Shown: one piece after another, positions 1 to 33,815 of the stretch | Layout: each line of letters begins with the position of its first letter | Position numbering within the stretch: the first letter of the stretch is position 1 | Assembly: GCA_035352955.1 (NCBI GenBank) | Contig: DAOPYQ010000002.1 | Span: forward strand, 140,518-204,517 | Origin: Candidatus Omnitrophota bacterium | GTDB taxonomy: Bacteria > Omnitrophota > Omnitrophia > Omnitrophales > Aquincolibacteriaceae | Direction of reading: 5' to 3' | Length of the DNA stretch: 64,000 nt | Made by a program: the position numbers and the translations under genes | Notes under the pieces: model-generated | Seen by the model: the letters and a program-made list of their open reading frames with translations, nothing else | What the model was told of the DNA's origin: nothing | The model's database searches: none

Positions 1-2006
1 GACCATGTTGTGGAATTGTCAGCCGGCGCAACGAGCACCCCGTTCACGTAGACCGAGCTATAGGCGTCCTTGGCGCCCGAGATCGTCACGCTTTTCCCGT
101 TGAAGACCGCCGGAGTCGCAGGATCCAGCGCCGGCATCGCCGGAGCCACCGTTCCCGCGAGGGCCCTCGTCGCCCCGATCCGATAAACTTCAACTTCGCT
201 GTTTTGAAGGCGCGTGAGGCTTGGAATATCAGCCGTGCTCATCGAAACAGGCGATAGACTGATCCAAATATCGGGCGCTCCGCTCCAGGTAAAATAGACA
301 TGCGTTTTCACGGGAACGAACATGACCCCTTCCTGCACGAGAACTTTAGCCACTGTCGACCGACGCGCAAATTCGTTATACCGCGTTTCCATCGTCGCCA
401 TCGCCCAGCTTTGAGAAGCCCAGGTCGTATAGGGATTGGCCGTGGAGAAATGAGGCGTTGCCAAAAGACCGGCAAAAGCCATGACGCTCTGAGGGTCCAT
501 CCCCTCCAAGACCGCCAGATTATTTTTAAAATCCGCAGCATCAAATCCCGTCCCGACGCTCGGTTTGTTCGCCGCGTAGGATGTTAGCTGAGCATCCGAA
601 ATCGTCGGAGCGATGACCTGGCTTGTGGCAAAAAGCATCTTGGCAAGCGCTTGATCCCGAGCGCTCAGTCCGGAAAGCAAAATCGTCCGTTGCGCCGTGG
701 TATAGGTGGAGAGAGCCCATTGAAACGCCGCGCGCGACTGAAATAACGCATCATAAAAATTAGCCGGCATCGCAGGTTTCGTCAAAAGATCCTCAAGCGT
801 CCTGGAAAACTCCCGCGCGGCCGCGACGCCATCATTGTTGATGATGGTATCTTTATAAGTCGCCGTATTTCCCAATTGATCCCGGACTTGGTAAGAGACT
901 TCATTCGTCCCGAGGCGCGAGGGCAGCGTCACCGCACGCGTGGCGGCAAAGGCTTCCCACTCGGTCCAGGTCGTCCCGCCGTCCATTGAAAAACGCATCG
1001 CGTCAACCCCGGATCCGGAATCCGCGGCTTTTAAATTCAAAGTGACGGAGACAGAACTCGTGGACGCGGCGCCGTTATTGATCGCGACGGAGCCGGTCGG
1101 AGCGGTGGTATCACGGGTGATCTTAACGTACTGGGTCGCGGAGGAAATCCCAAGCGCGCTTTTCGCGACCAGAGAGATCGAATTGACCCCTTCCGATGAC
1201 AACTTAACACCCGAAGCCGTCCATGTGGTCGAAGCATCCGCCAAAGCGACCAGAATACCTTTCACATACACGGAACTATAGGCTTCCTTGGTTCCCGTAA
1301 GCGTCACAGTTGTCTGGTTCGTCAAAAGCGATGTCGCGGGGTCTGCCTGAGGCAATGCCGGCGCCGCAAGATCCAATCCGTTGAGTTTTACATAGAATGT
1401 TCCGCTCCGGTAAGTCGAGGTAGTATCGGTCTGATCCACAAAAAAATGGATCGCTTTGATGCGGGAACGGTCCAAGGCCGGATCGAGAAGCGATAAATCC
1501 ATGCTCCAATAGCGCTGGGACGAAGAAGACACCTGGGTTAGCTCAAACGTGCCGAAGTTCCCGTTTGCGTCTTCGAAACGAACATTCACCGTCTGCGCGT
1601 AGCCTAAAAGCCCTACGGTAATTTTCGCGAGGGAAGAAAGATCCCCTGTTTCCTGACCCGCGGTGCCGTAATTATCAAAATCCACGGTCATCCCCGACAC
1701 GGCACCCGCCGGCCTGACATCGTATTTTACCCCGATCGTTGTTGCCGAAAGGCTCAGGGAGCTGGTGCTGCTCGATCCCGCCATAACATACGGCAGCGGC
1801 GTCCCCGGAAGCGTCGTCACATTCGTACTGGTGAGACCCGGCGTGTAAGGAACTGTCACCGGCGCTGCGGCCGATTCGGCAACAAAAGCCTTCTCCGGGA
1901 CAGGATCATAAAGAGGAGCGTTGGGGTTGATCGGATCCGCGTAAAGAACAGGCATAGAAAAAAAGGCCATCGTAACGGCAAGCATCAACGCAAATGCAGA
2001 TCGCAT
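1..2006 (-). CDS. Secreted Ig-like repeat surface protein, partial (C-terminus lies beyond the window start). The N-terminus has signal peptide MRSAFALMLAVTMAFFSMPVLYA.
   Basis: Hand translation of the minus strand from ATG 2006..2004 gives an uninterrupted ~668-codon frame to position 1. RBS AAGGGGAG sits upstream. Internal repeats (…GxKxAYSSVYVxGxLVAxADxSTTW… twice) and a Big-like segment (TTAPTGSVAINNGAASTSSVSVTLNLKAADSGSGVDAMRFSMDGGTTWTEW) are present. Absent from the ORF track because it has no in-window stop. Confidence 0.7.
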   Translation of the reverse strand, partial: MRSAFALMLAVTMAFFSMPVLYADPINPNAPLYDPVPEKAFVAESAAAPVTVPYTPGLTSTNVTTLPGTPLPYVMAGSSSTSSLSLSATTIGVKYDVRPAGAVSGMTVDFDNYGTAGQETGDLSSLAKITVGLLGYAQTVNVRFEDANGNFGTFELTQVSSSSQRYWSMDLSLLDPALDRSRIKAIHFFVDQTDTTSTYRSGTFYVKLNGLDLAAPALPQADPATSLLTNQTTVTLTGTKEAYSSVYVKGILVALADASTTWTASGVKLSSEGVNSISLVAKSALGISSATQYVKITRDTTAPTGSVAINNGAASTSSVSVTLNLKAADSGSGVDAMRFSMDGGTTWTEWEAFAATRAVTLPSRLGTNEVSYQVRDQLGNTATYKDTIINNDGVAAAREFSRTLEDLLTKPAMPANFYDALFQSRAAFQWALSTYTTAQRTILLSGLSARDQALAKMLFATSQVIAPTISDAQLTSYAANKPSVGTGFDAADFKNNLAVLEGMDPQSVMAFAGLLATPHFSTANPYTTWASQSWAMATMETRYNEFARRSTVAKVLVQEGVMFVPVKTHVYFTWSGAPDIWISLSPVSMSTADIPSLTRLQNSEVEVYRIGATRALAGTVAPAMPALDPATPAVFNGKSVTISGAKDAYSSVYVNGVLVAPADNSTTW

Positions 2007-2175
2007 AGGTTCTCCCCTTGAAGAGTTTCAGGATTCGTGAGGTTAAAAAAGATGCCAAAAGATAACAGACGAACCTTGATCAGGCAAGGGAAACAGCGGT
2101 GCCTTTGTAGAGAGAAACCCGCTTTAAAAAGGGGCTAACAGAAACGCTATGGGAAAGACAGGAATGCTAGAAAAA

Positions 2176-2215
2176 GCACAAAAAAAAAGGGACGGTTCTC
2201 TGTGAGAACCGTCCC
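2176..2215 (-). terminator. Rho-independent terminator downstream of the autotransporter gene
   Basis: Perfect hairpin gggacggttctc-tgt-gagaaccgtccc (2189..2215), followed on the minus strand by a T-run (A-run 2176..2188 on the plus strand), directly 3' of the stop at 2228. Confidence 0.6.
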
Positions 2216-2227
2216 TTCATGGTGCTA

Positions 2228-5200
2228 TTAGAAATCGAAACGCGCGGTAGCGTAGTAGGTATTGCTCGCGTACTCGTCCTTGAGCTCCAGATCGTAGTTT
2301 GCCGTCAAGGTCATGTTCCCTTTGTTCAGGAACGCGAGTTCGCTGCCGAGCAACAAACCGCTCTTCGCCGGCTTGGCGCCCTGCGTGTTAAACGCAGGAC
2401 CACCGCCCTGGAACGATGCCGTGCTCTCGAACTGATCGCCGATGTAATCGTACATCCAGGCGGCTTTCAGCGCCGGGATGAACGTTCCCATCTTCTTCGA
2501 CACGATCGGGTACGCGAACCGGGTACCGAGAGCCTGCAAGAGCTCATTATAACCTTCCCCGTTCACGTTCAAATTCAACGCGTCCGCGCCCTTCTCCTTG
2601 TACTCGTTCATGCGGAGATAGCTGTATTGCAATGACGCAAACGGCGTCACCTCAAGGTTTTTCGTCTCCTTAAAGACGAAGGTGTAACCTGATTCCAACT
2701 TCGTCGTGTACTGCTGGCCGTGGTGATCCGCTTTGGCCAAGCGCCTCGTCGTAGGCGTCAGCCAGATCTCGCGACGGCTATCGTAGTTATTTTCCGTGAA
2801 CGCGATCGTCCCATCTACGTACCAGTTATCCTCAACCTGGTTACGCACCGCTTCCCGGGAATTCTTATTGCTGTGCCGGGCTTTGCAAAGATCCGTGGAA
2901 TCATAGCTTCCATAGATCGCGGCCTGCCAGCTGTCGATCGTGTTCGACGGACTCCCCGGAGTCTTGGAATTCACTTTCGCAAGACCATAACCGCCGGCAA
3001 GCCCCAGGCGAACGTGATTGTCCAACATCTTGTCCGTACCGAGAGTGGTCCCGAACAGATTGGCCTTGTAACCTTCAATGCCTTTCCGGGCATCCTGCTT
3101 CACGTGACTGCCAAGGCCCTGGATCCAGACCCCCATTCCCTCGATCATGTCCCCCGTCGAGACACCTCCCATACTATTCCTCGCGTTACCAAGACGGTTG
3201 CTCACGCTTCCCATGAAGAGATCGGTAGCCGCGAGACTGCCCTGTTCCGCGCCTCCGCTCGGATCGGGATTCATCGTATCGAGGGCGTTCCCGATTTGAT
3301 CGGGAGGAAGGGTGTCCAAGGTGTTGAGGACGTTCAACATATCCCCTGTCGCTCCGTTCTGGCCGGCCTGTTCAAGCGCGGCTCCAGCTGCCTGACCGTT
3401 CGAGTTCGCGGTCGTATTCTGGTTGTAGGCTCCCGAACGCACCGCCGTCAGGATCAGGTCTCCGCCGGACGCGGAACCCGTGAAAGTAACGATGGAACTG
3501 CTTGAGTTGATCGTCAAATTCGCCGGAGTAATCGTGCCTCCCGCCGCGCCGTCCACAATCTTGAACGTCGTACCGCCGGCAATGTACTCACTGCCCACGG
3601 TAACATTAATGGTGCTCGCGGCAGTCATCGTCGCGTTCCCCGCCGTCGCCACAATGTTCCCGAACACCGACGCACTGTCGATGTTCAGATTCAGCGACGC
3701 ACCGGCACCCTGCGTGTAAGCCCCCGTCAGAAGGGTCAGGGTGTTAGAGCCGAGCGTCAGACCCGCGTTGTTGGTCACCGCACCGCCCGTTGAAAGAGAA
3801 TTGTTGTACGAAAGAGTCCCGGCGCTCACTAACGTCGTGCCATCATACGTGTTGGCATTCCCGAACGTCAAAGTTCCGGTACCGACCTTCGTAATCCCCC
3901 CAGTCCCGCTGATCACACCGGAGTAAGTCGTGCTTGTTGCATCGCCCACCGTCAGCGTTCCGCTTCCGAGCGTCACGTTACCGCCCGTGGTTCCGCCTCC
4001 GGAAAGAGATCCGACCGTCTGGTTAAAATCGTCCAGATCAAGGGCCGCCGAACCGACATTCGCAAGCGTTACCGCGGAACCGGAGCCAAAAGCCTTGCCC
4101 CCGGCCGCCGCGCCGGCCCTTAAGATACCGGCCGTGACCGTCGTAGTTCCGGTATAAAGATTGGTCCCCGAAAGCACAAGCGCCGATGTCGCGCTATTCT
4201 GGACAACGCCCGTGACGTTCGTCCCGATCACACCCGTGACCGCGCTTGTGCCGGTGCTGGTCCCCGAATTCGTGACCGTCCCGGTATTGTTGACCGCCCC
4301 CAACGTTACGCCCGAGGCAAGGTTGCTGTTGTTTTTCAGGGTCAGATTACCGGTCCCCGCGACGGCGCTGGAAACCGTCAATGCCGCACCACCGGCAGCG
4401 TTCGTAAGCGTCGTACCGGCCGTGTTCACGGTTAAGGCTGTCGTTTGGACCGTCAAGCCTGAGGTCGTGCTATTCTGAGTGATCCCCGTCACATTCGCGC
4501 CCACGCCGCCACTAATGATATTAGTGGCATTTCCAGCGCCTGAGTTTGTGATTGTGCCGGTGTTATTGACGCTCGTTCCGGACAGAGTGATCGCGTTACC
4601 CGCGGTAGCGTCCAGGGTGAGATTGCCTGCTCCGGTGATCCCACCCGTGAGCTCGAGTGTCGAACCGGCGGTGGACAAGGTAAGGGCGTGAGTGTTGAGC
4701 CCCACCGCGCCGCTAAAGATGCTGGCCGCGCTTGAGGTGATCGTTGCCGTGCCCGTGTTCCCGCCTGCGATCGAGATCGCGTTAGCAAACGTTCCGGCAA
4801 GACCCCCGTTCAACGTAGCGTTGTTCGCGCCGGCAGAGTCACCCACCGTGATCGTACCCGTGCCAAAAGCGGCCGCATTGGTGGTTCCCGAAAGCGTCCC
4901 CGCCTTGATCGTGGTGCCACCACCATAGGTGTTGTTCCCGGAAAGAACTGTAGTCCCGGCACCTTCTTTCGTAACGGCACTGCTGGCACCGGCAAGGACG
5001 GCGCTGACCGTCCCGGTATTCGTCAGGGAATAGGAACTCCCCGTAAGTTTTCCCGCGCCGCTGACCGTACCACCTGAAATCGTAACAGCGCCGACCGTTT
5101 CGTCTGTCGCAACATCAAGCGTGCCTCCGGTAACTACCACCGCCGAGGTGTCCTTAATGGCAGCTCCGTCCGAGAGAGTTAACGTTCCTTCTTCAACGGT

Positions 5201-5830
5201 GGTCGTTCCGCCATAGGTATTTGTCCCGGAAAGGACCCAAGTCCCGATTCCGTTCTTTCTCACGTGCAGCGAAGCCCCGCTAATGTCACCGCTGATCGTG
5301 TTGCTCCCGGTATCCGAGCCATTCAACGTAAGCTGGCCCATCCCCGAACCAGTGACCGAGCCCGTAACATTCATCACAAAAGCATCATTGGCGCTGTTAT
5401 TCGTAAAGGTCGCACTTCCGGCTAACGTGACATCCGCCGCGATCGTTTGGGTGGTAACCACATTGTCATTCATGACGATCGATCCGCCGTCATCGATCGT
5501 AAGCGTGTCCGTTCCCGCGCGTCCTATCGTGTAGCTCGCAAGATCCGCCGCTGAATTGTCAAATTGGATGTCCCTTATCGTTTTCGCCCCAGGGGTACCC
5601 GGAGGATCAAACCGGTTATCAAGAGAAATCAAAGTATGTCCGCTTCCGTCTGAGCTAAATGTCGCCTTCTCGCCTGTGCCAGGAATGGTGTTGTTCAGCC
5701 AGTTTCCCGTACTTCCCCAAACGCCATCGCCTCCGCCACCGGTCCAAACACTACCGTCTCCCGCAAGCGCCGAAACCGCGGGAAAAAGAAAACAAAAAGA
5801 TACCAACGCGATCAATAAGTTCTTTTTCAT
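2228..5830 (-). CDS. Autotransporter adhesin: signal peptide, long Gly/Thr/Ser-rich passenger with autotransporter-associated beta-strand (PATR-like) repeats, and a C-terminal beta-barrel translocator.
   Basis: 1200-aa ORF with N-terminal MKKNLLIALVSFCFLFPAVSALA. Repeated motifs xNTYxGGTTVxxGTLxL. C-terminal ~280 aa resemble an autotransporter beta-domain and end in an aromatic residue (…ATARFDF). RBS AGGAG. Confidence 0.8.
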   Translation of the reverse strand: MKKNLLIALVSFCFLFPAVSALAGDGSVWTGGGGDGVWGSTGNWLNNTIPGTGEKATFSSDGSGHTLISLDNRFDPPGTPGAKTIRDIQFDNSAADLASYTIGRAGTDTLTIDDGGSIVMNDNVVTTQTIAADVTLAGSATFTNNSANDAFVMNVTGSVTGSGMGQLTLNGSDTGSNTISGDISGASLHVRKNGIGTWVLSGTNTYGGTTTVEEGTLTLSDGAAIKDTSAVVVTGGTLDVATDETVGAVTISGGTVSGAGKLTGSSYSLTNTGTVSAVLAGASSAVTKEGAGTTVLSGNNTYGGGTTIKAGTLSGTTNAAAFGTGTITVGDSAGANNATLNGGLAGTFANAISIAGGNTGTATITSSAASIFSGAVGLNTHALTLSTAGSTLELTGGITGAGNLTLDATAGNAITLSGTSVNNTGTITNSGAGNATNIISGGVGANVTGITQNSTTSGLTVQTTALTVNTAGTTLTNAAGGAALTVSSAVAGTGNLTLKNNSNLASGVTLGAVNNTGTVTNSGTSTGTSAVTGVIGTNVTGVVQNSATSALVLSGTNLYTGTTTVTAGILRAGAAAGGKAFGSGSAVTLANVGSAALDLDDFNQTVGSLSGGGTTGGNVTLGSGTLTVGDATSTTYSGVISGTGGITKVGTGTLTFGNANTYDGTTLVSAGTLSYNNSLSTGGAVTNNAGLTLGSNTLTLLTGAYTQGAGASLNLNIDSASVFGNIVATAGNATMTAASTINVTVGSEYIAGGTTFKIVDGAAGGTITPANLTINSSSSIVTFTGSASGGDLILTAVRSGAYNQNTTANSNGQAAGAALEQAGQNGATGDMLNVLNTLDTLPPDQIGNALDTMNPDPSGGAEQGSLAATDLFMGSVSNRLGNARNSMGGVSTGDMIEGMGVWIQGLGSHVKQDARKGIEGYKANLFGTTLGTDKMLDNHVRLGLAGGYGLAKVNSKTPGSPSNTIDSWQAAIYGSYDSTDLCKARHSNKNSREAVRNQVEDNWYVDGTIAFTENNYDSRREIWLTPTTRRLAKADHHGQQYTTKLESGYTFVFKETKNLEVTPFASLQYSYLRMNEYKEKGADALNLNVNGEGYNELLQALGTRFAYPIVSKKMGTFIPALKAAWMYDYIGDQFESTASFQGGGPAFNTQGAKPAKSGLLLGSELAFLNKGNMTLTANYDLELKDEYASNTYYATARFDF

Positions 5831-6077
5831 GAGGAGACTCCTAAGTTGTTGTTCAAAATCTCACTTAAGAAAAGGCTTGGGACCCGGCGTAAATTCAGCC
5901 TGCCCGAAACCCCTTAAAGACACCTAAAAAACCAAAAAAGGGCTCTGAGACCTATCGTAATTTACGGCCAATCTTCCAAAAACTCAAGGAGAAAGCCTCG
6001 CTTGAAGAAATTTCTGTTTGGAGGATGACCCCAGCGTTATAAGATATCCGCGAAGTTAGAATTCGGAGCTTTTCCCT

Positions 6078-7211
6078 ATGGACGAAAAACCGGTATTAAG
6101 CGTGATTCTCCCCTGCCTTAACGAAGAGGCCGGCTTGGAATTCTGCCTCCCCAGGATCAAATCCGTCCTCTCCCGGGTCAACGTCCCTTCGGAAATGATC
6201 GTGATCGACAACGGGTCTAGCGACCGAAGCGCCGAAATCGCCTTGAGAAGCGGTGCACGGGTCGTGCAGGAACCCGTGCCAGGATATGGCGCGGCGTGCA
6301 TGAAAGGGCTTGAAAGCGCCCGGGGAGAATATTGCTTTATCGCCGACGCGGACGGTTCTTACGATTTTGAGGAAATTCCTAAATTTCTGGCGGCACTCGC
6401 CGGAGGGTGGGACTTTGTCATCGGGAACCGGTTTAAGGGCAGAATCGATCCGGGGGCCATGCCTTGGTCACACCGCCACATCGGCAACCCGGTGCTTTCC
6501 TCCGTTCTGAGACTTTTTTTCAATACCAAGATCCACGACACGCACTGCGGTATGCGCGCGATCACCCAAAAAGCGTACCAAAACCTCGGTTTGATGACGA
6601 CCGGCATGGAATTCGCCTCAGAAATGATCGTGATGGCCTTGAAAAAAAATCTCCGGATCTTCGAGATTCCCGTCAATTACCATGTCAGGAAAGGCATTTC
6701 GAAGCTAAAGCGGATCTCCGACGGATGGCGGCACCTCCGGTTCATGCTCCTCTACAAACCCTTTTTTCTGTTCTTTGTCCCCGGGATATTGATGCTTTCC
6801 TTGGGATTGATCTCCCTGCCTCTTTTTTATTTCGATGCCGTCAGCCTTCCCGGGATCCGGTTCTATTATCACCCGATGTTCCTTTCTTCGCTTTTTATCA
6901 TCACGGGATTCCAGCTGGTCCTCTTCGCGCTCTTTGCAAAAACCTACGCGATCACCCATCTAGACGACACTCCGGTCCTCGAAAGATTTTACCGGCATAT
7001 GAACATCGAACGGGCCAGCCTTGTAGGGCTAGCCTGCATAGGGCTTGGAGGATTCGTCTACTTGGCGATTTTTGTGAAATGGGTGGGGACCAACCTGGGA
7101 GCCCTTAATGAAGTTAAGAACGCGATCCTGGCTCTCACGCTCATGGTGCTTGGGATCCAAACGGTTTTCTCCGCTTTCATGCTCAGCATCCTCGGGATCA
7201 AACGGAAATAA
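6078..7211 (+). CDS. Family-2 glycosyltransferase with C-terminal transmembrane helices (polyprenyl-phosphate sugar transferase-like, DPM1/GtrB/ArnC class)
   Basis: N-terminal LSVILPCLNEE…VIDNGSSD…DADGSY GT-A motifs and 3-4 C-terminal hydrophobic helices. Confidence 0.75.
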   Translation: MDEKPVLSVILPCLNEEAGLEFCLPRIKSVLSRVNVPSEMIVIDNGSSDRSAEIALRSGARVVQEPVPGYGAACMKGLESARGEYCFIADADGSYDFEEIPKFLAALAGGWDFVIGNRFKGRIDPGAMPWSHRHIGNPVLSSVLRLFFNTKIHDTHCGMRAITQKAYQNLGLMTTGMEFASEMIVMALKKNLRIFEIPVNYHVRKGISKLKRISDGWRHLRFMLLYKPFFLFFVPGILMLSLGLISLPLFYFDAVSLPGIRFYYHPMFLSSLFIITGFQLVLFALFAKTYAITHLDDTPVLERFYRHMNIERASLVGLACIGLGGFVYLAIFVKWVGTNLGALNEVKNAILALTLMVLGIQTVFSAFMLSILGIKRK

Positions 7212-7234
7212 CGATCCCGCGGGCCGGAAAAGGC

Positions 7235-8254
7235 TTATACGTTCCCTGGAAAAAACTTCCGCCACCGGCTGATCACCCTGGTAAAGGGAACGGTCCGGAA
7301 ACAACGCTTTCGGAAATTCAGAAGCCCCTCCGCGGCAGCGATCAATTTCAAACCCAGCTCCGGCTTCCCCCGGTAATACCGCGCCAGGTCCTCCTTTATA
7401 AAATGAAGGATTTCGTCAAAGGGCTTTTCTGACAGCAACAAGACCTCGCCGAAACCGAAAAGATGCTCCGGAAGTTTTTCGGGAAAATGCTTGGCGAGAA
7501 ACCTCAACCGGTTCTTCAAAATAAGCGCCGGTCTCAAAACGCTTTTCTTCCGGGATCCATGTAACCGGTGCCGCACAAGACTGCGCGGCGCGAAAATCAC
7601 TTTGTATCCGAGTCCTCGTAACCGGTAATTCATGTCCAGATCTTCCGAATACATGCGAAAATCCTCATCAAACAACCCAGCTTCTTCCAATGCCTCTTTT
7701 TTATAAAGCACCGCAACATTGGAAACGCTGATCACTTCTTCGGTCTCGGAATATTGCCCCCGATCGCGTTCTCCAAGACCGCGGTCGCCCCAATGATAAT
7801 TGGGAAGCTGTTCATGTCCGCAACTTTGGATCCTTCCGTCCATGAAAAGCACTTTGCTGCCCACCGCCCCGACATCTTCTAAAGATTGAGCCGCCCGGAC
7901 AAGTTCGATCAGCCATCGCCGGTCGACCTTCGTATCGTTGTTCAGTAACGCGACATACTCCCCGCGCGTTTCCCGGATCCCGAGATTGTTCGCGCGGCAA
8001 TAGTTGTTGCACTCATTCTGAAGGAGCCGAACCTCCGGATAATTCCGGCGAAGATACTTCAACGAACCGTCTGTGGAACCGTTATCGATCACAAACACTT
8101 CGCGCCGGTCGCCGGGATAATCCAGTTTCCGCAGTTCCTCCAGGCATTCTTTCAGCAAACGCTTCCCGTTGTAATGAACGATAAGGATCGTTACGAACGG
8201 AAGCGCTTTCTCCTGTTTCGGATCCTCAGCTCGCATGAACCGGATTCCTTTCAC
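7235..8254 (-). CDS. Family-2 glycosyltransferase
   Basis: VTILIVHYNGKRLLKECL…FVIDNGSTDGS… GT-A fold motifs and a DxD-like LNNDT. Its 5' end overlaps the upstream gene by 29 nt (8226..8254). Confidence 0.75.
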   Translation of the reverse strand: MKGIRFMRAEDPKQEKALPFVTILIVHYNGKRLLKECLEELRKLDYPGDRREVFVIDNGSTDGSLKYLRRNYPEVRLLQNECNNYCRANNLGIRETRGEYVALLNNDTKVDRRWLIELVRAAQSLEDVGAVGSKVLFMDGRIQSCGHEQLPNYHWGDRGLGERDRGQYSETEEVISVSNVAVLYKKEALEEAGLFDEDFRMYSEDLDMNYRLRGLGYKVIFAPRSLVRHRLHGSRKKSVLRPALILKNRLRFLAKHFPEKLPEHLFGFGEVLLLSEKPFDEILHFIKEDLARYYRGKPELGLKLIAAAEGLLNFRKRCFRTVPFTRVISRWRKFFPGNV

Positions 8255-9368
8255 ACCCCGGCGCGGGGCTCAAAGATATTTGTTCTTTGATCTTTTCAAT
8301 AAACACTGCCGTGTCAAATTCCCGGGCGCGCACCCGGCAGGCCTCGCGGTATTTCGCGGGATCCGCATCCAATTCTTTTCCGAGCATTTGGATCGTCCCG
8401 CGAAGTTTGTCTTCATCAATATCCCGGATCAAAACACCCGTTTTAGCGTGAACCACCGTCTCACGGTAACCACCTTCCTCCGGGGCAATGACCGGCTTGC
8501 CCGAAGCCATCGCCTCCACGACATTCATGCCAAAGTCCTCGTCCTGCGCAGTCGTAATAAAACCCTTACAATGTGCGTACAATTCTACCAGTTCTTCGTG
8601 AGAGACCCAGCTTTTGATCTCGACATTCTCCGGTTTTATCCTCGTACAATAGGCCGCATAGTCAAGAAAATGGTTCGACTGCTCGTAGCTCCCGACAATG
8701 ATCAGCCGCTCCCCGGGAAGTCCCGCAAAAGCATTCATCTGAAGGTCGATCCTCTTGTGCCGGATAAGCCGGTTCACCGAAAGCCAGTAACCCTCCGGCG
8801 GCGCATAGCGGAATTTTGAAGTCTCGACCGGCGGATGAATCACAACGGCTTCTTTGCCGAGAAATTTCGCCACTCTTTTTTTTGTATTTTCCGAATTGCA
8901 AACCACCCGCTCCACGGCTTTGACATATTTCCGGTTAAGATAACGGTTCACAATAACCCAAAGATCAAAAAATAACCGCCCCCAGAATGGAACCATTGTT
9001 TTTCTCACGTACGAATAAAGGTCCCATATCTCGCGGATCGGCGAATGGACATACCAGAGATTGGAACGGTTCTTCACCGCTCCCGACATGGCCCAGTCGC
9101 CGGCGATAACAAAAAAGTCGTATTTCTTTTTCAGGTCCAACCGCCGGAACTTCCCCAGGGCGATCTGCTGCCGCCAAGGCGGGTTGAGCGGGATCTTTCC
9201 GATCGAGAAAATCCTCGGGAGCACGTCGGCGAACCCCATGCTGCGGATCTTCTCGGGATCCGTGTTGGTCGTATAAATATCGGCGTTCAATTCCCGGGCA
9301 AGCGTCAGAGAAACGATCTCCGCCCCTCCGATGTTATCGATAAAATTGTGGAAGATCGCGATCCTCAT
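8226..9368 (-). CDS. Family-4 (GT-B) glycosyltransferase
   Basis: Start chosen at MRIAIFHNF (ATG 9368..9366), which forms an ATGA overlap with the stop of the upstream TMTC-like gene. C-terminal EAMASGKPVIAPEEGGYRETV retaining-GT4 motif. Confidence 0.7.
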   Translation of the reverse strand: MRIAIFHNFIDNIGGAEIVSLTLARELNADIYTTNTDPEKIRSMGFADVLPRIFSIGKIPLNPPWRQQIALGKFRRLDLKKKYDFFVIAGDWAMSGAVKNRSNLWYVHSPIREIWDLYSYVRKTMVPFWGRLFFDLWVIVNRYLNRKYVKAVERVVCNSENTKKRVAKFLGKEAVVIHPPVETSKFRYAPPEGYWLSVNRLIRHKRIDLQMNAFAGLPGERLIIVGSYEQSNHFLDYAAYCTRIKPENVEIKSWVSHEELVELYAHCKGFITTAQDEDFGMNVVEAMASGKPVIAPEEGGYRETVVHAKTGVLIRDIDEDKLRGTIQMLGKELDADPAKYREACRVRAREFDTAVFIEKIKEQISLSPAPGCERNPVHAS

Positions 9369-11212
9369 GAAGAATGCCGCTCCCGTTTCTTTTTTTTTGC
9401 CAATCGCAAATTCCTCTGGGCTGCCCCATAGCAAGGGTTGATCCGGACAGCCGTCTGGAACGCATTCCCGGCTTTTTCGTATTGCCCCATCATGCCGTAG
9501 GTCACTCCAAGATTGTTCCACGCTTCACCAAACAGGGGGGCTCTTTTGATAGCTTTTGTACCATAACGAATGGCATTTTCCATATCTCCGACCATTGCGT
9601 AGGCGTATCCCAGATTGCTGTACGCTTGAGCCCTTGTCGGATCCAACTCGATCGCTTGATGGCAATACCGGATTTCCCGGACATAATCCCCCATTTGTCC
9701 GTAAACCGCTCCCAAATTCGTATAAAGCTGTGCCAACGGTTCCTTGTACCCAGGCTGATATTTTAACGCCGTTTCATAAGCCGTGATTGCCTGCCTGTAG
9801 GCCCCCCTCTTTCGATAAGCGACCCCAAGGTTCACGTAAGGCCTGGCCTTATGCGGCGATTTTTTAATACAGTCCTTCCAAAACCGGATCTCATGGCCCC
9901 AGACATCGTTCCGCAAGAACGTCAGCCATGAAAAAACAAGAATCCATCCCGTCATGATCAAAAAAAAGATCCTTCGGTTCCGCAAAATATCATAAAGACC
10001 CGCACAAAGAGCCATGAGAAAACCGATCGAAGGAAGATAAAGCCGGTGTTCCATCATCGGGTCCTTCAACGGGATAAAACTCGACGTCACGGAAAGTGTC
10101 AGAAAAAACCACAGAACCCCGAAAGCGACCAGCGGGAAACGACGCGCCGCCCATACCGCGCTGCAAAGAACCGAGAAAAGGACAATAGCATTAACAAGGA
10201 CCGGGCCGTCGAACCATCCGGAAACCCATCGGATATCCGGATCGAAATTCTGCCTTAAAGGCACGAGCAACAGCCCGATATAGCGCGGGATCACTTCAAG
10301 CTGCGTCAGAAAATATTTCCCGCTCGTAATACCCATGCGCGCATGGGATTCGAATAGAGCATTAAATTTCACCGGCAAAAACCACAGAACTACCAAAAAC
10401 AAAAAACAAACGCCCGCCATCGAGATCCAGAACGTTTTTCTGGACGCCCTTGGTTCGCTCAAAGCGTTCGCTGAAACCGGCTCTTTCAGAAAAACCCATT
10501 CCACCAGAAAAATCGCCCCCGGCAACGTGAAGACCGTTTCTTTGGTAAACGCCCCCAACAGCGCCGACACCGTCGCAAGAATAAAACAAAACGCTTTTGA
10601 AAAACCGCGCGACGCATCCAATCGTCCTTTCAAATACAGGCAAAGCGACAGCATATAAAAAAAGCCGGCAAGGCATTCGAACCGCTGACTGATATAAGTC
10701 ACCGCCTGCGTCTGGATCGGATGGACCGCGAACAGCGCGCCCGTCAAAAAGGCAAACTTTCTCCCGTGCTCCGCGATCCCGCTTCCCCGCATGCGGGGCG
10801 TTTTAAAAATCAGCAAGAGCAACACTATCACCAATAGAGAGACCGCCGTATGGATCGCGACATTGACCAGGTGATAGCCGATCACCCTATACCGGCCCAC
10901 ACGATAGTTCATCGCGAACGAAGTAAATCCCACGATCCTCGCGCGATAGCTTTGAATCTTCCAGAGCTCCGGAGAGCCGATCTGGCGGATCGCGGGATTC
11001 TTGAGGATGTACTCTTCGTCATCGAATAAAAACGGCGCCCGCAGAGTATTGGAGTAAAGTAGGAACCCCCAAACACAAAGACTGATCAACGAGATCAGGA
11101 CCATCCCATTCTTTTTTTTCAGCTCCAAAAGGCCCTTCGCTTTCCCGAAAAGGACACTCCCCGCTTCTAAGGTCCCCTTCGGCTCTAAATGATTCCGGAA
11201 TTCCTTTTCCAA
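9365..11212 (-). CDS. TMTC-like GT-C membrane protein: N-terminal DUF1736/PMT-like multi-TM domain plus C-terminal TPR repeats (putative O-mannosyl/glycosyl-transferase)
   Basis: FLFDDEEYILKNP and GYHLVNVAIH motifs characteristic of DUF1736/TMTC. Around 10 TM helices. C-terminal ~200 aa consist of TPR repeats (…NLGVAYRKRGAYRQAITAYETALKYQP…). Confidence 0.65.
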   Translation of the reverse strand: MEKEFRNHLEPKGTLEAGSVLFGKAKGLLELKKKNGMVLISLISLCVWGFLLYSNTLRAPFLFDDEEYILKNPAIRQIGSPELWKIQSYRARIVGFTSFAMNYRVGRYRVIGYHLVNVAIHTAVSLLVIVLLLLIFKTPRMRGSGIAEHGRKFAFLTGALFAVHPIQTQAVTYISQRFECLAGFFYMLSLCLYLKGRLDASRGFSKAFCFILATVSALLGAFTKETVFTLPGAIFLVEWVFLKEPVSANALSEPRASRKTFWISMAGVCFLFLVVLWFLPVKFNALFESHARMGITSGKYFLTQLEVIPRYIGLLLVPLRQNFDPDIRWVSGWFDGPVLVNAIVLFSVLCSAVWAARRFPLVAFGVLWFFLTLSVTSSFIPLKDPMMEHRLYLPSIGFLMALCAGLYDILRNRRIFFLIMTGWILVFSWLTFLRNDVWGHEIRFWKDCIKKSPHKARPYVNLGVAYRKRGAYRQAITAYETALKYQPGYKEPLAQLYTNLGAVYGQMGDYVREIRYCHQAIELDPTRAQAYSNLGYAYAMVGDMENAIRYGTKAIKRAPLFGEAWNNLGVTYGMMGQYEKAGNAFQTAVRINPCYGAAQRNLRLAKKKKRERHSS

Positions 11213-11362: not shown

Positions 11363-12103
11363 CTATTCATATCGCGTCGGATCTTGTTTCAGTCGCGCCA
11401 AAACTTTTGGGACATCTTGAGGTTCATCCACCGAAATCGAGTCGGTGGAAAGCTCGATCATCCTGACCCTGACTCCCATCTCAAGAAATCTCAAGATCTC
11501 TATATCCTCGATCCGTTCCAGGGGAGTTTTAGCGGAAGCTCCCCCGAACCGCAAAAGCACCTCTTTGGGGAAAGCATAAACGCACACCTGTCTCCAGGCA
11601 TTGAGAAGCCCTACCTTTCCACTCGCGGGGATCGGTGCTCGCGACATATAAAGGAGCTGACCATCTTTTCCGAAAGCAACTTTGGGGATGTTCCGGCTGA
11701 GGAATAAGCCTTCCTCTTTTATCGGGCAATATCCGTTCAAAATTTCCCCGGGAAATTTGGGGAGAATTTCCAGGATCTTAGAGATATCCTTCGGATTGAA
11801 CACCGGTTCATCCCCCTGGACATTGATATAGTAGTCAGCCTCAACCGCCCTACTGGCTTCAGCAACACGATCTGTTCCCGTCAAACAACTCGCGGACGTC
11901 ATAATAACATTCATCCCATGCTCCCGGCAGTGAGACGCGATCCGCTCATCGTCCGTCGCAACAAAAATATCCCGCCGATCGAAAGCCTTGGCGCATTGCC
12001 CAAATGTTCGCTGGATCATTGTTTTCCCCATCAGATCGATCAGCGGTTTTCCGGGCAACCGGGAGGATTGGAATCTAACCGGGATCACCAAAACAATTTT
12101 CAT
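11363..12103 (-). CDS. kdsB: 3-deoxy-manno-octulosonate cytidylyltransferase (CMP-Kdo synthetase, KdsB/KpsU family)
   Basis: IPVRFQSSRLPGKPL and INVQGDEP motifs match the CMP-Kdo synthetase family; 246 aa. Confidence 0.6.
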   Translation of the reverse strand: MKIVLVIPVRFQSSRLPGKPLIDLMGKTMIQRTFGQCAKAFDRRDIFVATDDERIASHCREHGMNVIMTSASCLTGTDRVAEASRAVEADYYINVQGDEPVFNPKDISKILEILPKFPGEILNGYCPIKEEGLFLSRNIPKVAFGKDGQLLYMSRAPIPASGKVGLLNAWRQVCVYAFPKEVLLRFGGASAKTPLERIEDIEILRFLEMGVRVRMIELSTDSISVDEPQDVPKVLARLKQDPTRYE

Positions 12104-12653: not shown

Positions 12654-14474
12654 TCATAATTTTTGAGCCTGCCATTGCTTATAAAACAACCCTTTCCGAT
12701 CGATCAGCTCTGTCAAGGTCCCTGACTCCGCAACCCGTCCTTTATCCAGATAAATGATCTTATTGGCTTTCCGAATGGTCGAAAGCCTGTGGGCGATTAC
12801 GATCAGTGTTTTTTCACGGCTTGTTTCCAAGATAAATTCATTAATACGGGCCTCGGTCCCGGAGTCCAGAGCGCTGGTCGCCTCATCCATGATCAAGATC
12901 TCCGGATCTTTAATCAGCGCCCGCGCGATCGACAACCTCTGGCGCTCCCCGCCGGAAAGGCGGGTCCCCCGTTCTCCGACAAGCGTCTCATATTTTTGAG
13001 GCATTTTTCCCACAAAATCCTGGATCTGGACCTTTCCCCCAAGCTCATGAAGCCGTTCTTCCGAGATTTCTCCGGAAACCCCGTAAACGATGTTGTTCCG
13101 GATCGTATCATTGAAAAGAAGGACCTCCTGGCTTATGAGCGCCATGCGCCCTCGGAGTGACGCTATCTCGTAGTCGCGGATATCCCGCCCGTCCACAAAA
13201 ATGGCCTCCGGCGGGCAATCGTAGAACCTCAACAGCAGGTTCACAAGCGTGCTCTTCCCGGAACCCGAGGGCCCCACGATCGCAACGACCGACTGCCGGG
13301 GGATCGAAAAATTGACCTTGTCCAGGACGTACGCCTCCTTTTCTCCGTACCGGAAAGAAAGCTCCCTGAACTCGATCGCCTTCTTGAGTCCCGTGAATTC
13401 CACGGAACCACTTTCGACACCGGCATGGCCCTTGTGATAAAGGACCTGCTCAATATCATGAATGGCCGAAGCGGCGTTCGCGGACCCAAGCTTGAATGTG
13501 TTGATCGCATTGAATCCCGGAATCACCCGCATCGCAAGATAGAAAAAGACGAATGCCTGCGACGGGTCCGGAGCATGATCAAACTTCATCACGATCGCCA
13601 ACCCGAAGGCGAGACACAGAATCCCGGTCACGGAACCAAGATCCGACACAGGCCCCGCCAAGCTGGTCAACCGCTGCGTCTTAAAGGAATGATCGACCTC
13701 CTCTTCGCTGGCTTTGGAGAACCGGGCGATCTCTTCCCGCTCTTTCACAAAACTCCGGATCACCGGCATGCAGTAGAGCATATTGAAGATCCGTTCGTGA
13801 AGGTTCTTGGCATAGCGATCGTGCTCTCGCGAGGCCTCACGAATCCTCCGAATGATGTTCTGGGTCAAAAATTCGGTCAGCGGGAAGGCCACAGCCGCCA
13901 CACAGGTCAATTTCCACGATAGATGGGCCATCATGCTGATATACGCCACAAGGAGAAGGGCCTGGACGATAAAATGCTGAAATAACTGGAACTGAGATTC
14001 GATCAGACTGGTGGCCTTGGTCAGGACGGTCTGCAGGAAAGCGGTTGTGTTCTTATCGTAAAAACTTTTGCTGTAGCTTAGGCATTTTTCAACCAACAAC
14101 CGGCGGATATTCGCCGTAGCATACCGGGCCTGGGTTTGGCTGCAAAACGACGCGAAATACAAAAAAACATTCTTCGCGATCGTAACGAGATAGAACCAGA
14201 CCACCAGCAACGCGAATAACCGCGTCGAGGTACGGAAAAGACCTGGAAACCGCATCACAAAAAAACGAAGGACCGGAAGGTGCCCTACGTGCTTAAAATC
14301 CCCGCGCAGGATCCCTCCCGTCAGCGGCAATAGCAACTGGGCGGCATAAAGCGCTAGCAAACTGAAACAGAAAGAAAAAATGACGGACAGGGCCAAAAAC
14401 CACATGTTGACCCGCCCCATTTTCAGGAACGCGATAAGCTTTTTTGTGTTCTGAAAGACTTCACTCTGCGACAT
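12654..14474 (-). CDS. ABC exporter with fused permease and ATPase (MsbA/PglK-like lipid or lipid-linked glycan flippase)
   Basis: Six N-terminal TM helices. Walker A GPSGSGKST, signature LSGGERQRLSIARAL, Walker B ILIMDEATSALD. Start taken at MSQSEV (14474); the ORF could extend to 14519. Confidence 0.75.
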   Translation of the reverse strand: MSQSEVFQNTKKLIAFLKMGRVNMWFLALSVIFSFCFSLLALYAAQLLLPLTGGILRGDFKHVGHLPVLRFFVMRFPGLFRTSTRLFALLVVWFYLVTIAKNVFLYFASFCSQTQARYATANIRRLLVEKCLSYSKSFYDKNTTAFLQTVLTKATSLIESQFQLFQHFIVQALLLVAYISMMAHLSWKLTCVAAVAFPLTEFLTQNIIRRIREASREHDRYAKNLHERIFNMLYCMPVIRSFVKEREEIARFSKASEEEVDHSFKTQRLTSLAGPVSDLGSVTGILCLAFGLAIVMKFDHAPDPSQAFVFFYLAMRVIPGFNAINTFKLGSANAASAIHDIEQVLYHKGHAGVESGSVEFTGLKKAIEFRELSFRYGEKEAYVLDKVNFSIPRQSVVAIVGPSGSGKSTLVNLLLRFYDCPPEAIFVDGRDIRDYEIASLRGRMALISQEVLLFNDTIRNNIVYGVSGEISEERLHELGGKVQIQDFVGKMPQKYETLVGERGTRLSGGERQRLSIARALIKDPEILIMDEATSALDSGTEARINEFILETSREKTLIVIAHRLSTIRKANKIIYLDKGRVAESGTLTELIDRKGLFYKQWQAQKL

Positions 14475-14527
14475 TCTTCTTGTCCTTGTTTTAGCAGAAA
14501 AGGGCCCGCCCCGTTCCACTCAGTAAC

Positions 14528-15355
14528 CTACCCCTGCATTCCCAAAAAGTCCCTCACGCGGTACTTCTCGGCATGGATTTTATCACGGACCCTTTGCCAA
14601 AACGAGCGGTCCGGTCCTTCCTGGAACGGCTCAAAACAAACCGGACGGGCAACAAACCCGCTCTTTTCCACCACCCGAGATAAAAGTCTCTCGATCGCGT
14701 GAGCCAAAGTTCCGTTACGCCGAATCGATACCTCACACGGAAAATCTTCCATACCCAAACCCAATTCATATAAAGGAGCCAAGGCCCTCGGGCGGAACCA
14801 GAACATGGATCCTGCCGGGAAAACGACGGCTTTCGTCGCCGGAAGTTCGAGCCCCAAGCGCCCCGCAAGCACCGAACAGATCTTCCAGTTGTTGCTCCAG
14901 GATTCCTTCTCAAGGCCCCCCCCGAGGATCGGGATCACTTCAGGATAGACCATCCCCAACCGTTCGTTTTCCTCGAACATCCGCAAAATCGCCGCGACTG
15001 TTCCGGCAGACCCGGCGAGATTTTCAAGAAGATAACGTCCCCATTCTTTGAGCCACAAGCGGTGAGGACTCTTTTTGGTGTGGACCTTGAGAACAAGATC
15101 ATAACCGGAATAAATTTCCCCGAATTCGCAGAGGAACGGCGCGATATCAAAACCGCGATTCAGGACGCCCTTCAAGAAGATCTTTTTCCCGGGGAACGCC
15201 TCCGACAAAACGCTTCGGACCTTCTTCACAGAAGCCGCGGGAGCTGACGCGTACAGATCGAATTCCCGGGGAATATTCTTCAAATAGCCGGCGATCATTC
15301 CAGCCTGCTCCTCGTAGAAAAAATGTCCTACGACGGCGATCCTGAAAGGGGTCAT
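14528..15355 (-). CDS. RgpF-like (rhamnan synthesis protein F family) glycosyltransferase domain protein
   Basis: MTPFRIAVVGHFFYEE… resembles the N-terminal domain of the 1203-aa protein (RIAIVVHCYYPE…). Start ATG 15355 forms an ATGA overlap with the upstream gene's stop. Confidence 0.5.
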   Translation of the reverse strand: MTPFRIAVVGHFFYEEQAGMIAGYLKNIPREFDLYASAPAASVKKVRSVLSEAFPGKKIFLKGVLNRGFDIAPFLCEFGEIYSGYDLVLKVHTKKSPHRLWLKEWGRYLLENLAGSAGTVAAILRMFEENERLGMVYPEVIPILGGGLEKESWSNNWKICSVLAGRLGLELPATKAVVFPAGSMFWFRPRALAPLYELGLGMEDFPCEVSIRRNGTLAHAIERLLSRVVEKSGFVARPVCFEPFQEGPDRSFWQRVRDKIHAEKYRVRDFLGMQG

Positions 15356-16605
15356 TGAAGATCCTTCGCGATATTCCGGCCCATCGCACGAACGAGGATG
15401 GCTACTCCCTCGTTCCCCACATGACAACAGTCGTCAACATAAAGGGGTTCCGGATGATCCGAAAAAACCCTGGTCAGATCATAGAATTTAACGCCGGCAT
15501 CAGAAAGAGCCTTCCCCATCTCTGAAAGATAGGGGTAACCTTCTTCCGCGGACTTTTTATATACATGGCGTTCGTTTATTGCAATACGGCGCTCTTGATC
15601 TCTTATAGGTTTTGTCCCTAGAACGTATTGATTGGGCTGGAGAAAGTGGTAATACCGGATCCCGTTTGCATTACAGATCCTGTGCATTTGAAGCGAACAC
15701 CGCTCCCAGAACGCTGCGAGGTCCTGATACATCGTGCGATCATCCGCATAAGACCGCTGCGGTCCCATCATAGCGTAAGAATCCCGGACCGGTCGTTCCC
15801 CGGCGCTCAGCTTCTGCATATCCTGAAAGATCTTGGCGGATAGCGACCCATCGATAAGCCGAAAGACCAACTGCATGGTAAAGCTGTAACGGAAAAGATT
15901 CATTGAAAAAACGTCCGCCACGGTTTTGCGGGTCTTCTTCAAACGAATGAGATCGGCCCTTCTCAGGATCTCCTCGGGACCGCCAACCTCCCGGAAAAGC
16001 CGCCATCTCCATCTGCGCGGAAAAAACAAACATGTTTTGTCGGGAAGATTTTCGGTTACGGGAAGAACGATATCGTTGAAGCCGTCTAGATTAATGATCA
16101 TGTCGAAGGCCCCGTCCAACGCCAACATGTAATTCAAGATCATCAATTGCTGCGGCTGTTTATATCCCCCGAAAGCGAAATTCAGAAGAACGATCTTTTT
16201 ATCCTTCAAGGCAGGGATTTTTTTCAACTCATCCCTCAAGGCCTCCATGCCCAAAAAACTAACGCTCATCGCAACCGATCCGCCGAAAACGGCAACAATA
16301 TATTGTTCGTCCGACTCGCGCTGAAAAGGGATTCCTTCGCTCTGGTGACAACGGCCCACAAAACCGTATTCGGAAGTACATGGCGCGTGTTTCGAATCCC
16401 GGGGCCCGAGAACATACCCAATATAGGGATGAGCCACCTCGTTTTGCAGAGACAATGGAAAATTCGGTCGGCCTTTTGGAAAAGGACCGTCATGAACATC
16501 CACCCGGTCGAGGAACAATTTCCCGAACGCAAAAGAAAAAAGCTCCAGGACCAACGCGCTTAAAATGATCGTGGCACAGAAAAAAACGACTTTCTTGAAT
16601 TTCAT
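15352..16605 (-). CDS. Membrane-anchored SGNH/GDSL-like hydrolase/acyltransferase (putative polysaccharide O-acyl modification)
   Basis: N-terminal TM helix. SGNH blocks FGGS (I), DGFND (III) and C-terminal DDCCH (DxxH, V). Confidence 0.5.
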   Translation of the reverse strand: MKFKKVVFFCATIILSALVLELFSFAFGKLFLDRVDVHDGPFPKGRPNFPLSLQNEVAHPYIGYVLGPRDSKHAPCTSEYGFVGRCHQSEGIPFQRESDEQYIVAVFGGSVAMSVSFLGMEALRDELKKIPALKDKKIVLLNFAFGGYKQPQQLMILNYMLALDGAFDMIINLDGFNDIVLPVTENLPDKTCLFFPRRWRWRLFREVGGPEEILRRADLIRLKKTRKTVADVFSMNLFRYSFTMQLVFRLIDGSLSAKIFQDMQKLSAGERPVRDSYAMMGPQRSYADDRTMYQDLAAFWERCSLQMHRICNANGIRYYHFLQPNQYVLGTKPIRDQERRIAINERHVYKKSAEEGYPYLSEMGKALSDAGVKFYDLTRVFSDHPEPLYVDDCCHVGNEGVAILVRAMGRNIAKDLQ

Positions 16606-16658
16606 GTTCGCTGTCTTTCTTTTAAACGATCTGGATTCCCGCGTCGCCGGGAAATAAT

Positions 16659-17729
16659 CTACGCATGAGAAGGTTCCGGCGGCTTAGCTCTTCCCTTGAT
16701 CCATCTCAAAAATTCCGGTTGGATACACTCCGCGGCAAAACGGTTGCCGGCGATGTTCCAGTGAGTATCGTTCGGTTTGTAGAAACCCGCACGATCGCGA
16801 AACGCGTTCAACAGATCCACATAAGGGACCCCTTGTTCCGAAAGATACCGGCGGAGCAACTTGTTGGGAGCGTCCCATTCCATTTTCTCAGAAAGAACAT
16901 CTTTAGGGAACTTCCTTGAGAGTTGCCGCTGCAGGTCCTGGTCGACCTGCATCTGATCGGGGATCAGGACGAAAGCGATCAAGATCCCTTTCTCACGGCA
17001 CAAAGCGATCATCTCATCCAACTGAGCGCGAACAAACGGCCATCTTGGTTTCAGCTTCCAACTTTCTTTTCCAAAGTTAATGCTTCGTTTTTTTTCGATC
17101 TCAAGAAACGCTTCTTCCTTAAATGTGGCGGCGCCATCCCGGTACACCGGAGCAGGCAAAAGCGGCTGGCGAACAGATTCAAAAAAAACTTTCCCGTTGG
17201 TGAAAAGACGGACCGTTAATAAAGCGTCCGCCCAACTACGCGGTTGGGGTATCGTGTCCAAAAAATCGTTCCCGACAAAAAAAGATACCACCACGGCATC
17301 GGGATGAAAGAACAAAGCCTCATGCCGGAGCACAGACAAATACTCCACCGGCCCGGCTCCGGGAACTCCCATATTCAGGATCTCGATATCAAGCCCCTGG
17401 GCAACACCCCACTCCTCCAACAGTGTCCAATAGTTATCTTTATGGGGCACAATCCCGTACACAAAGGAATCCCCAAGGGCTACGACACGAATACGATGTT
17501 TTTTTTGAAGCGTAAAATCGTGGTCCTTGAATCCAAGATTTTTGCGGCCCGGCTTCTTCCTCAGATGGTTTTTGATTAAAAGCTGTCGTTTCCCAAGATC
17601 GTGCAGAAGTGGCATGGGAATAAAATATTGAGCCGCACGAAGCCCCAGCTCGAATACCAGAAAACTAAAAAAGATCCCGAAAAGGAGCGCAATCCCCCGT
17701 TTGCCCCATTTGGCAGAAAATATGGACAC
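16659..17729 (-). CDS. Membrane-anchored SGNH/GDSL hydrolase (AlgX/AlgJ-like)
   Basis: N-terminal TM. Blocks VVALGDSFVYG (I), MGVPGAGP (II), GNDFLD (III), DTHWN (V). Confidence 0.6.
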   Translation of the reverse strand: MSIFSAKWGKRGIALLFGIFFSFLVFELGLRAAQYFIPMPLLHDLGKRQLLIKNHLRKKPGRKNLGFKDHDFTLQKKHRIRVVALGDSFVYGIVPHKDNYWTLLEEWGVAQGLDIEILNMGVPGAGPVEYLSVLRHEALFFHPDAVVVSFFVGNDFLDTIPQPRSWADALLTVRLFTNGKVFFESVRQPLLPAPVYRDGAATFKEEAFLEIEKKRSINFGKESWKLKPRWPFVRAQLDEMIALCREKGILIAFVLIPDQMQVDQDLQRQLSRKFPKDVLSEKMEWDAPNKLLRRYLSEQGVPYVDLLNAFRDRAGFYKPNDTHWNIAGNRFAAECIQPEFLRWIKGRAKPPEPSHA

Positions 17730-17762
17730 TTTATCAGTCTCCTTCCTCAGCTATGAAACGCT

Positions 17763-18851
17763 TCACTGCGGGACCGGACGGCGTCCTTCCGCCTCGCCAA
17801 ACCGCTTGTAATGCTCATAAGGATCCATGCCGCTCGCCGCGACATCCGGATTTTGTTCTAAATACCACTTGGCATTGAATGTCCGGCGAGGCCAAAAACG
17901 CCGCCAAAAGTTCTCCCCCGTATCTTTTTTTAATTCCGCGATGAGCCGCGCTCTGATACTAGGGGCAAACTCGAACAACCTCTCTAACTGCCGGTCATTT
18001 TCCTTTTGAATATTGTTAATCGTTCCGAGGGTAAATTCTCCGTTCCGTCTTAGTTCCCGGTCCGGATTGACATAGATCAGATCCCTGAAATTATCAGGAA
18101 CGACGCAAACCTTTGTCCCCTTCCGGACAGCCATTCCCCAAAACCACACATCATCGTTGCTGAAAGCGATCCTGTTGAACGATGCTTCGTCGAACACCCT
18201 TGCGTCGAGGCAATGCGGCGGGTACAAAACACCCCCGCTTCCCGTAAAAAAATTGAGAAAAGACGGCGACACATTCCGGACGCATTGCTGCCATCCGGCA
18301 TAAGGCCGCAACTCGTCCCGCGGGATCCATGCCACCCGATGGGCCCTGTGACAATGAATAGCGGCCGGCTCTTTTAAGTAAGAGGCGTAAAGCCGTTCCA
18401 GCCAATCCCGCGGATAAAAAATGTCATCATCCGCCGTCACAACAACATCCTCCGGGAATTCACGCAGTGCCGGGATAAGTTTCTTATATTGCCTGAGATC
18501 CTTGCACCACCGGATCGTCAGCCCGCACCGCACCAGTCCCAGAACCTGAGCGGGAACATTTTTTTCCTTGTTCGGAAACTGTTCTTCCGCCAGCCACAAA
18601 ATAACGGCGTCCGGCGAAACCGTCTGGTCCAGCAAGGAATAAAGGCAAAAGTGGATGTCATGCATTCTCTCGGGAAAGGAAGTGAGCGAAATGATCAATT
18701 TCGGTTTCCTTGGGACCGAAGTGAGGCTTTTTCCGGAAAATGCCGCGATCCGCGGAGCGACGACTTCCTTATCGATATACCGGATCGAATATCCCGGACG
18801 GATTTCCAAGTCCCGAATTGCGTCTCCACAAAGGTTTTTTTCTGCCGTCAT
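17763..18851 (-). CDS. Putative glycosyltransferase (DxD-type) with C-terminal WY..PDV..HY..G.AEGR module
   Basis: LIISLTSFPERM… and VVTADDDIFYP (DxD). The last 38 aa, FNAKWYLEQNPDVAASGMDPYEHYKRFGEAEGRRPVPQ, match the repeated module found in neighbouring enzymes. Confidence 0.5.
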   Translation of the reverse strand: MTAEKNLCGDAIRDLEIRPGYSIRYIDKEVVAPRIAAFSGKSLTSVPRKPKLIISLTSFPERMHDIHFCLYSLLDQTVSPDAVILWLAEEQFPNKEKNVPAQVLGLVRCGLTIRWCKDLRQYKKLIPALREFPEDVVVTADDDIFYPRDWLERLYASYLKEPAAIHCHRAHRVAWIPRDELRPYAGWQQCVRNVSPSFLNFFTGSGGVLYPPHCLDARVFDEASFNRIAFSNDDVWFWGMAVRKGTKVCVVPDNFRDLIYVNPDRELRRNGEFTLGTINNIQKENDRQLERLFEFAPSIRARLIAELKKDTGENFWRRFWPRRTFNAKWYLEQNPDVAASGMDPYEHYKRFGEAEGRRPVPQ

Positions 18852-24312: not shown

Positions 24313-24457
24313 AGAATTCCAAATCAGTTGATCTGATAGATGAAACCGCCCTCCTGAGGGCCGCTTGTGATGATCATAAGGAACAACGTCAGCAAAAAGA
24401 GCGCCATCAAAAGAATAGCGCCCCACAGCACATATTTCCCGAAAGAGATCTTTCCCA

Positions 24458-25438: not shown

Positions 25439-25457
25439 CGATCGTCTTTCCCCGGTC

Positions 25458-27089: not shown

Positions 27090-27109
27090 ACCCGATCCTT
27101 GACCGTCGT

Positions 27110-30907: not shown

Positions 30908-30958
30908 TTCATGGGCTTTATTGGCGTCGCAAAATTCCTGAACAATGTGAGGGGCATT

Positions 30959-33786: not shown

Positions 33787-33815
33787 GATCTCTTACGAGC
33801 CGGAGGAGAGTTCGG

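Follow-up and report, generated by a model that had tools for sequence, protein, structure and literature searches.

The 64,000-nucleotide window (the whole stretch of Candidatus Omnitrophota DNA that was analysed) encodes a GT-C membrane glycosyltransferase (9365..11104, minus strand) that is a bacterial relative of animal TMTC. Its gene and that of a DPMS/AglJ-like polyprenyl-phosphate-sugar synthase (6078..7211, plus strand) lie at the 3' edge of a glycan cluster, and the two enzymes probably work as a pair in periplasmic glycosylation that depends on a lipid-phosphate sugar. Movement of a sugar from a lipid-phosphate donor in the periplasm is well supported.

The open reading frame of the transferase (9365-11212, minus strand, 615 aa) opens at TTG 11212, and the N-termini of homologues favour ATG 11104 (M37) as the likely start. 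The N-terminal half is a membrane domain of about 417 aa, followed by about 4.5 C-terminal TPRs that are predicted to be periplasmic (Pfam TPR_1 E 8.5e-31, residues ~450-600 of the 615-aa frame). A sequence-only reading of this DNA had described a TMTC-like GT-C enzyme with C-terminal TPRs, the motifs FLFDDEEY and YHLVNVAIH, and a DUF1736 domain. The identity and the TPRs were borne out, and both motifs (the second as GYHLVNVAIH) were found in the frame and are family-wide, but the N-terminal 417 aa gave no PF08409 (DUF1736) match, even with the threshold relaxed to E<=10. No PMT or MIR domain was detected in the Pfam search either. Structural modelling, which that reading had suggested, gave a GT-C fold in high-confidence models; the best matches were Pmt4, Pmt2, ALG12, STT3 and ArnT, with yeast Pmt4 and Pmt2 the closest solved folds.

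A profile built from 30 bacterial relatives was run against eight N-terminal regions of human and fly TMTC and matched all of them (E 3e-37 to 8e-27); on this comparison, the transferase is judged homologous to the TMTC protein O-mannosyltransferases across the whole GT-C domain. Animal TMTC1-4 (CAZy GT105; cadherin/protocadherin O-mannosyltransferases) and the transferase share one motif order: DD in loop 1, S-Y-R, HP-x-x-T-x-A-V, R-x-E/D, K-E-T-x-x-T, the D of the DW motif and E-(H)-R-x-Y. The transferase itself carries DD, S-Y-R, K-E-T-x-x-T, QNxDxD and E-H-R-x-Y. In both, extracytoplasmic TPRs follow an N-terminal membrane domain, and a polyprenyl-phosphate-sugar donor is implied for the transferase by the neighbouring synthase. 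Unlike TMTC1-4, the enzyme is bacterial and periplasmic and is encoded within a polysaccharide cluster; it has another residue in place of the W of DW, lacks the H-K of SHKSYRP, gives no detectable DUF1736 match and carries about 4.5 TPRs, whereas TMTCs have about 8-12. It differs from fungal and actinobacterial PMT (GT39) in having TPRs in place of MIR and an identity of only ~10%.

At E<=1e-30 the bacterial family counts 27,189 clusters, and the literature yielded no study of its function. F-x-[FL]-DD and YHxxNxxxH were kept in nearly all of 120 homologues, and the residues invariant in family alignments (D28, counted from M37, R56, H78/N81/H85, H128-P129, Q140-R141, K188, T193, E352 and Y356) map to TMTC motifs M1, M2, M3, M4 and M7 (PMC7801869). 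DUF1736 reached E~0.05 in just 2 of 30 members. TPRs were present in every listed member with recorded Pfam hits, protein length ran from 509 to >850 aa, and tandem arrays with at least 10 paralogues occur. The commonest neighbour was a DPMS/GtrB-like GT2 gene (23 of 89 loci, several phyla); GT2 or GT4 neighbours were seen in only 12 of the 89 loci and an ABC neighbour in 9, indicating that most family members lie outside glycan clusters.

The synthase consists of a GT2 (GT-A) domain (Pfam GT2 E 2.8e-24), in which residues 90-92 form a DAD motif, and of four C-terminal TM segments within residues 229-368, the archaeal-DPMS type as opposed to the two-TM GtrB. Its best PDB match was the P. furiosus dolichol-phosphate mannose synthase (5MLZ, 374 aa, E 2e-15), and ArnC came next. 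The NCBIfam matches were AglJ (7e-41), Dol-P-hexose transferase (4e-29) and PpgS (1e-22), all under equivalog cut-offs, and a 71% identical orthologue in locus L002 is annotated PF26629 GT2_TM_C. By these similarities, the protein probably makes the lipid-linked sugar donor for the transferase. The gene is the most informative neighbour in the window and had been overlooked in the sequence-only reading.

Nearly all cluster genes are on the minus strand. The transferase gene had been placed at the head of the glycan operon; it is instead near the 3' end, followed only by a GT4 gene (8226..9368, minus strand, Pfam Glycos_transf_1 E 1.7e-24), whose start ATG overlaps the transferase stop (ATGA at 9365-9368), and a GT2 gene (7235..8254, minus strand, Pfam GT2 E 1.8e-21), the last of the unit, which overlaps the GT4 end by 29 nt and is convergent with the synthase gene across a 23-bp gap. 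A KdsB-like CMP-Kdo synthetase gene (11363..12103, minus strand, PF02348 E 1e-39; NCBIfam PRK13368, 267 bits, over the cut-off of 255) lies 258 bp upstream of the transferase gene. The PglK-like ABC flippase claimed earlier is present as a fused TMD-NBD half-transporter of MsbA/HepA/PglK type (Pfam ABC_membrane and ABC_tran), located at 12654..14519 (minus strand) and thus outside the 1-11212 segment to which it had been assigned; its NCBIfam matches (HepA-family 4e-122, MsbA 9e-111, PglK 3e-68) are all under equivalog cut-offs. It is a candidate glycan exporter or flippase, possibly also for the lipid-linked donor. By domain search, the remaining minus-strand cluster (14528..34676) encodes RgpF-like GTs, one multidomain GT of 1203 aa and another of 1265 aa that includes a pyruvyl-transferase domain, two SGNH/GDSL proteins, a weak sulfotransferase match, CysN/C, CysD, TauE and two proteins without a family match. 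The cluster is of the ABC-transporter-dependent type, with sulfation, pyruvylation and CMP-Kdo genes; a GtrA-like flippase gene was looked for at this locus and none was present.

The glycan made by the enzyme's own cluster is tentatively preferred as the acceptor, because the transferase gene shows translational coupling to GT4 and GT2 and is kept within clusters of this kind in related genomes. The TMTC-GT4-GT2 unit recurs in loci L001 (GT4 77% and GT2 75% identical) and L084, where RgpF and the TMTC-like start share 4 nt and a single 722-aa protein is a fusion of GT4 with GT2. With the DPMS-like gene, the four-gene neighbourhood is present in the window and L084; L001 shows the first three genes on a contig too short for the fourth. 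Five of eight close-clade contexts of the TMTC-like gene are ABC-transporter glycan clusters. Coupling to cytoplasmic GT4 and GT2 fits glycan decoration at least as well as protein glycosylation. Streptococci use a set of RgpF-like GT, ABC exporter, GtrB-like synthase and GT-C to add side chains to their rhamnopolysaccharides (10.1101/180810; PMC8035078), periplasmic O-antigen modification employs it as well (PMC11127046), and by analogy the same set in this cluster would count for a glycan acceptor. What the locus has in common with GtrA/GtrB/GtrC, Klebsiella Gml, streptococcal GacI/GacL and SccN/SccM is a GtrB/DPMS-like synthase and a GT-C whose genes lie within or next to a glycan cluster that depends on an ABC transporter and has RgpF-like GTs (PMC11127046, PMC8035078, 10.1101/180810).

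Unlike those three-component systems, the locus has no GtrA-type flippase gene, and its GT-C, a member of the TMTC lineage, has TPRs. The near-universal TPRs of the family count against a glycan acceptor, and we know of no characterised glycan-modifying GT-C (GtrC, GacL, GmlC) that has them. So do the protein substrates of the closest characterised homologues (TMTC1-4) and closest solved folds (Pmt4/Pmt2), the location of most family members outside glycan clusters, the missing GtrA-like flippase, the DPMS-like gene being convergent with the transferase operon and not within it, and two close homologues that follow murB, one of them immediately followed by a 2154-aa autotransporter.

Protein O-glycosylation had been the proposal of the sequence-only reading: the TMTC-like enzyme, on the same donor pathway, would modify Ser/Thr of secreted or envelope proteins, with the TPRs selecting clients. 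This reading is possible though somewhat doubtful; that the PATR autotransporter is a client during periplasmic transit is unlikely. TMTC homology, the TPRs, the paired synthase and autotransporter adjacency speak for the proposal, while its operon picture, its Ig-like target and a reverse test of that adjacency go against it. The candidate acceptor (2228..5830, minus strand) was confirmed as a 1200-aa autotransporter with a signal peptide, four PATR repeats and a beta-domain (PF03797 E 2e-56). The second protein (3..2006, minus strand, open frame) is, as described, a partial secreted protein with a signal peptide and repeated Ig-like modules; it is 5'-complete, with the N-terminal 668 aa present and the 3' end cut by the window start, and its domain matches are weak (Glucodextran_B E 8e-5 and OmpL47-type E 1e-7, both under cut-off). 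Their Ser/Thr richness also stood: S+T made up 27.8% of the autotransporter passenger and 22% of the Ig-like protein, versus 6-14% of other cluster proteins. The two genes, said to lie immediately upstream of the transferase, are in fact downstream, beyond the convergent synthase gene, and are transcription units apart from the glycan cluster. The autotransporter gene is divergent from the DPMS-like gene (247-bp spacer) and has its own strong terminator, an intrinsic-terminator-like hairpin directly after its stop (2186..2218, minus strand; 15-bp stem, then a T-run). No relative of the Ig-like protein was found in any related locus, and nothing supports it as a target.

Three of eight related contexts have a PATR autotransporter adjoining the TMTC-like gene: the window, L002/L003 and L085 (beta-domains 60% identical between window and L002, 61.5% between window and L085). 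L085 has the murB context without a glycan cluster, and in L002, as in the window, the DPMS-like gene and autotransporter are divergent neighbours. Against this, an autotransporter is missing from L084, L086, L088 and the P0005 locus, and among 23 loci with autotransporter relatives (52-72% identity) a TMTC-like gene was present only in L103 and L111, two copies of the L002/L003 locus type; about eight of the remaining loci have at least 3 kb of upstream-side flank. The autotransporters form a multi-copy paralogue family (three in tandem in L095), and those adjoining TMTC-like genes are no closer to the window copy than others; the adjacency may therefore be chance (rough estimate, p~0.03-0.1). 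Protein glycosylation also leaves the coupling to cytoplasmic GT4 and GT2 unexplained.

Precedents for protein modification exist. Pseudomonas aeruginosa TfpW is a pilin O-arabinosyltransferase, an 11-TM GT-C with a DDX motif and a lipid-linked donor (10.1101/2020.04.19.049825). By reported architecture it resembles the transferase in its GT-C and C-terminal periplasmic TPR domain, and in a gene beside its protein acceptor (pilA); its YX6PFX7P motif is absent here, and the pilin acceptor and D-Araf are its own. In streptococci, GtrB+PgtC2 and PgfS+PgfM1 carry out O-glycosylation of extracytoplasmic protein regions rich in Ser/Thr, and the adhesins that serve as Pgf substrates are encoded in the pgf cluster itself (PMC12041528; PMC5856776). 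PgfS is among the NCBIfam matches of the synthase family, and the pairing of an Und-P-sugar synthase with a GT-C is the same, but those GT-Cs are of the YfhO family, without TPRs, in a Gram-positive host.

It is improbable that the GT-C enzyme is a terminal oligosaccharyl transferase or ligase that moves a glycan en bloc to protein or to some other acceptor in the envelope. Either the DPMS/AglJ-like protein would start, and GT2/GT4 extend, a short oligosaccharide on polyprenyl monophosphate, like Haloferax AglJ/AglG, or the donor would be the whole ABC-exported glycan. The conserved four-gene neighbourhood, AglJ as best NCBIfam match of the synthase, a weak AglG match of GT2 (7e-8), OSTs (STT3, AglB, PglB) among the structural matches and the MsbA/PglK-type protein are consistent with this, and TfpW is proposed to combine both activities (10.1101/2020.04.19.049825). 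However, the donors of the closest homologues and folds (TMTC, PMT, ArnT) are monosaccharide phosphates, the module is broken in L002 (GT4, 71% identical, is elsewhere and a GT2 orthologue is absent), and the NCBIfam matches are all far under equivalog cut-offs.

There is a similarly slim chance that the acceptor is lipid A, LPS core or a peptidoglycan precursor, or that the protein is mainly a TPR scaffold for envelope biogenesis: ArnT, which modifies lipid A, is a structural match of the transferase, ArnC matches the synthase, an LpxL-like gene indicates that the organism makes lipid A, and the two murB-linked homologues are co-directional with gaps of 27-95 bp, but only 2 of 30 members show a marginal similarity to ArnT-type PMT_2 (E 0.01, versus 1e-37 to TMTC), no lipid A modification genes lie near the transferase, and catalytic motifs invariant across the family argue for activity.

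In the preferred pathway, with the cluster's glycan as acceptor, the DPMS/AglJ-like GT2, anchored by its four TM helices, would take one sugar (mannose or another hexose is our best guess) from a nucleotide sugar and, at the cytoplasmic face, load it onto polyprenyl (undecaprenyl) phosphate, and the lipid-linked sugar would be flipped across the membrane, the MsbA/PglK-type protein being only a candidate for this step. The TMTC-like GT-C, with its motifs in the periplasm, would then pass the sugar to an acceptor near its periplasmic TPR domain, an activity we infer from fold, motifs and homology. Donor loading and periplasmic transfer as proposed are quite likely; the acceptor is the weakest step. 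That acceptor may be the cluster's own exported glycan or a lipid-linked intermediate, in which case the pair would carry out post-export side-chain glycosylation, by analogy with three-component systems of the GacI/GacL or GtrB/GtrC type.

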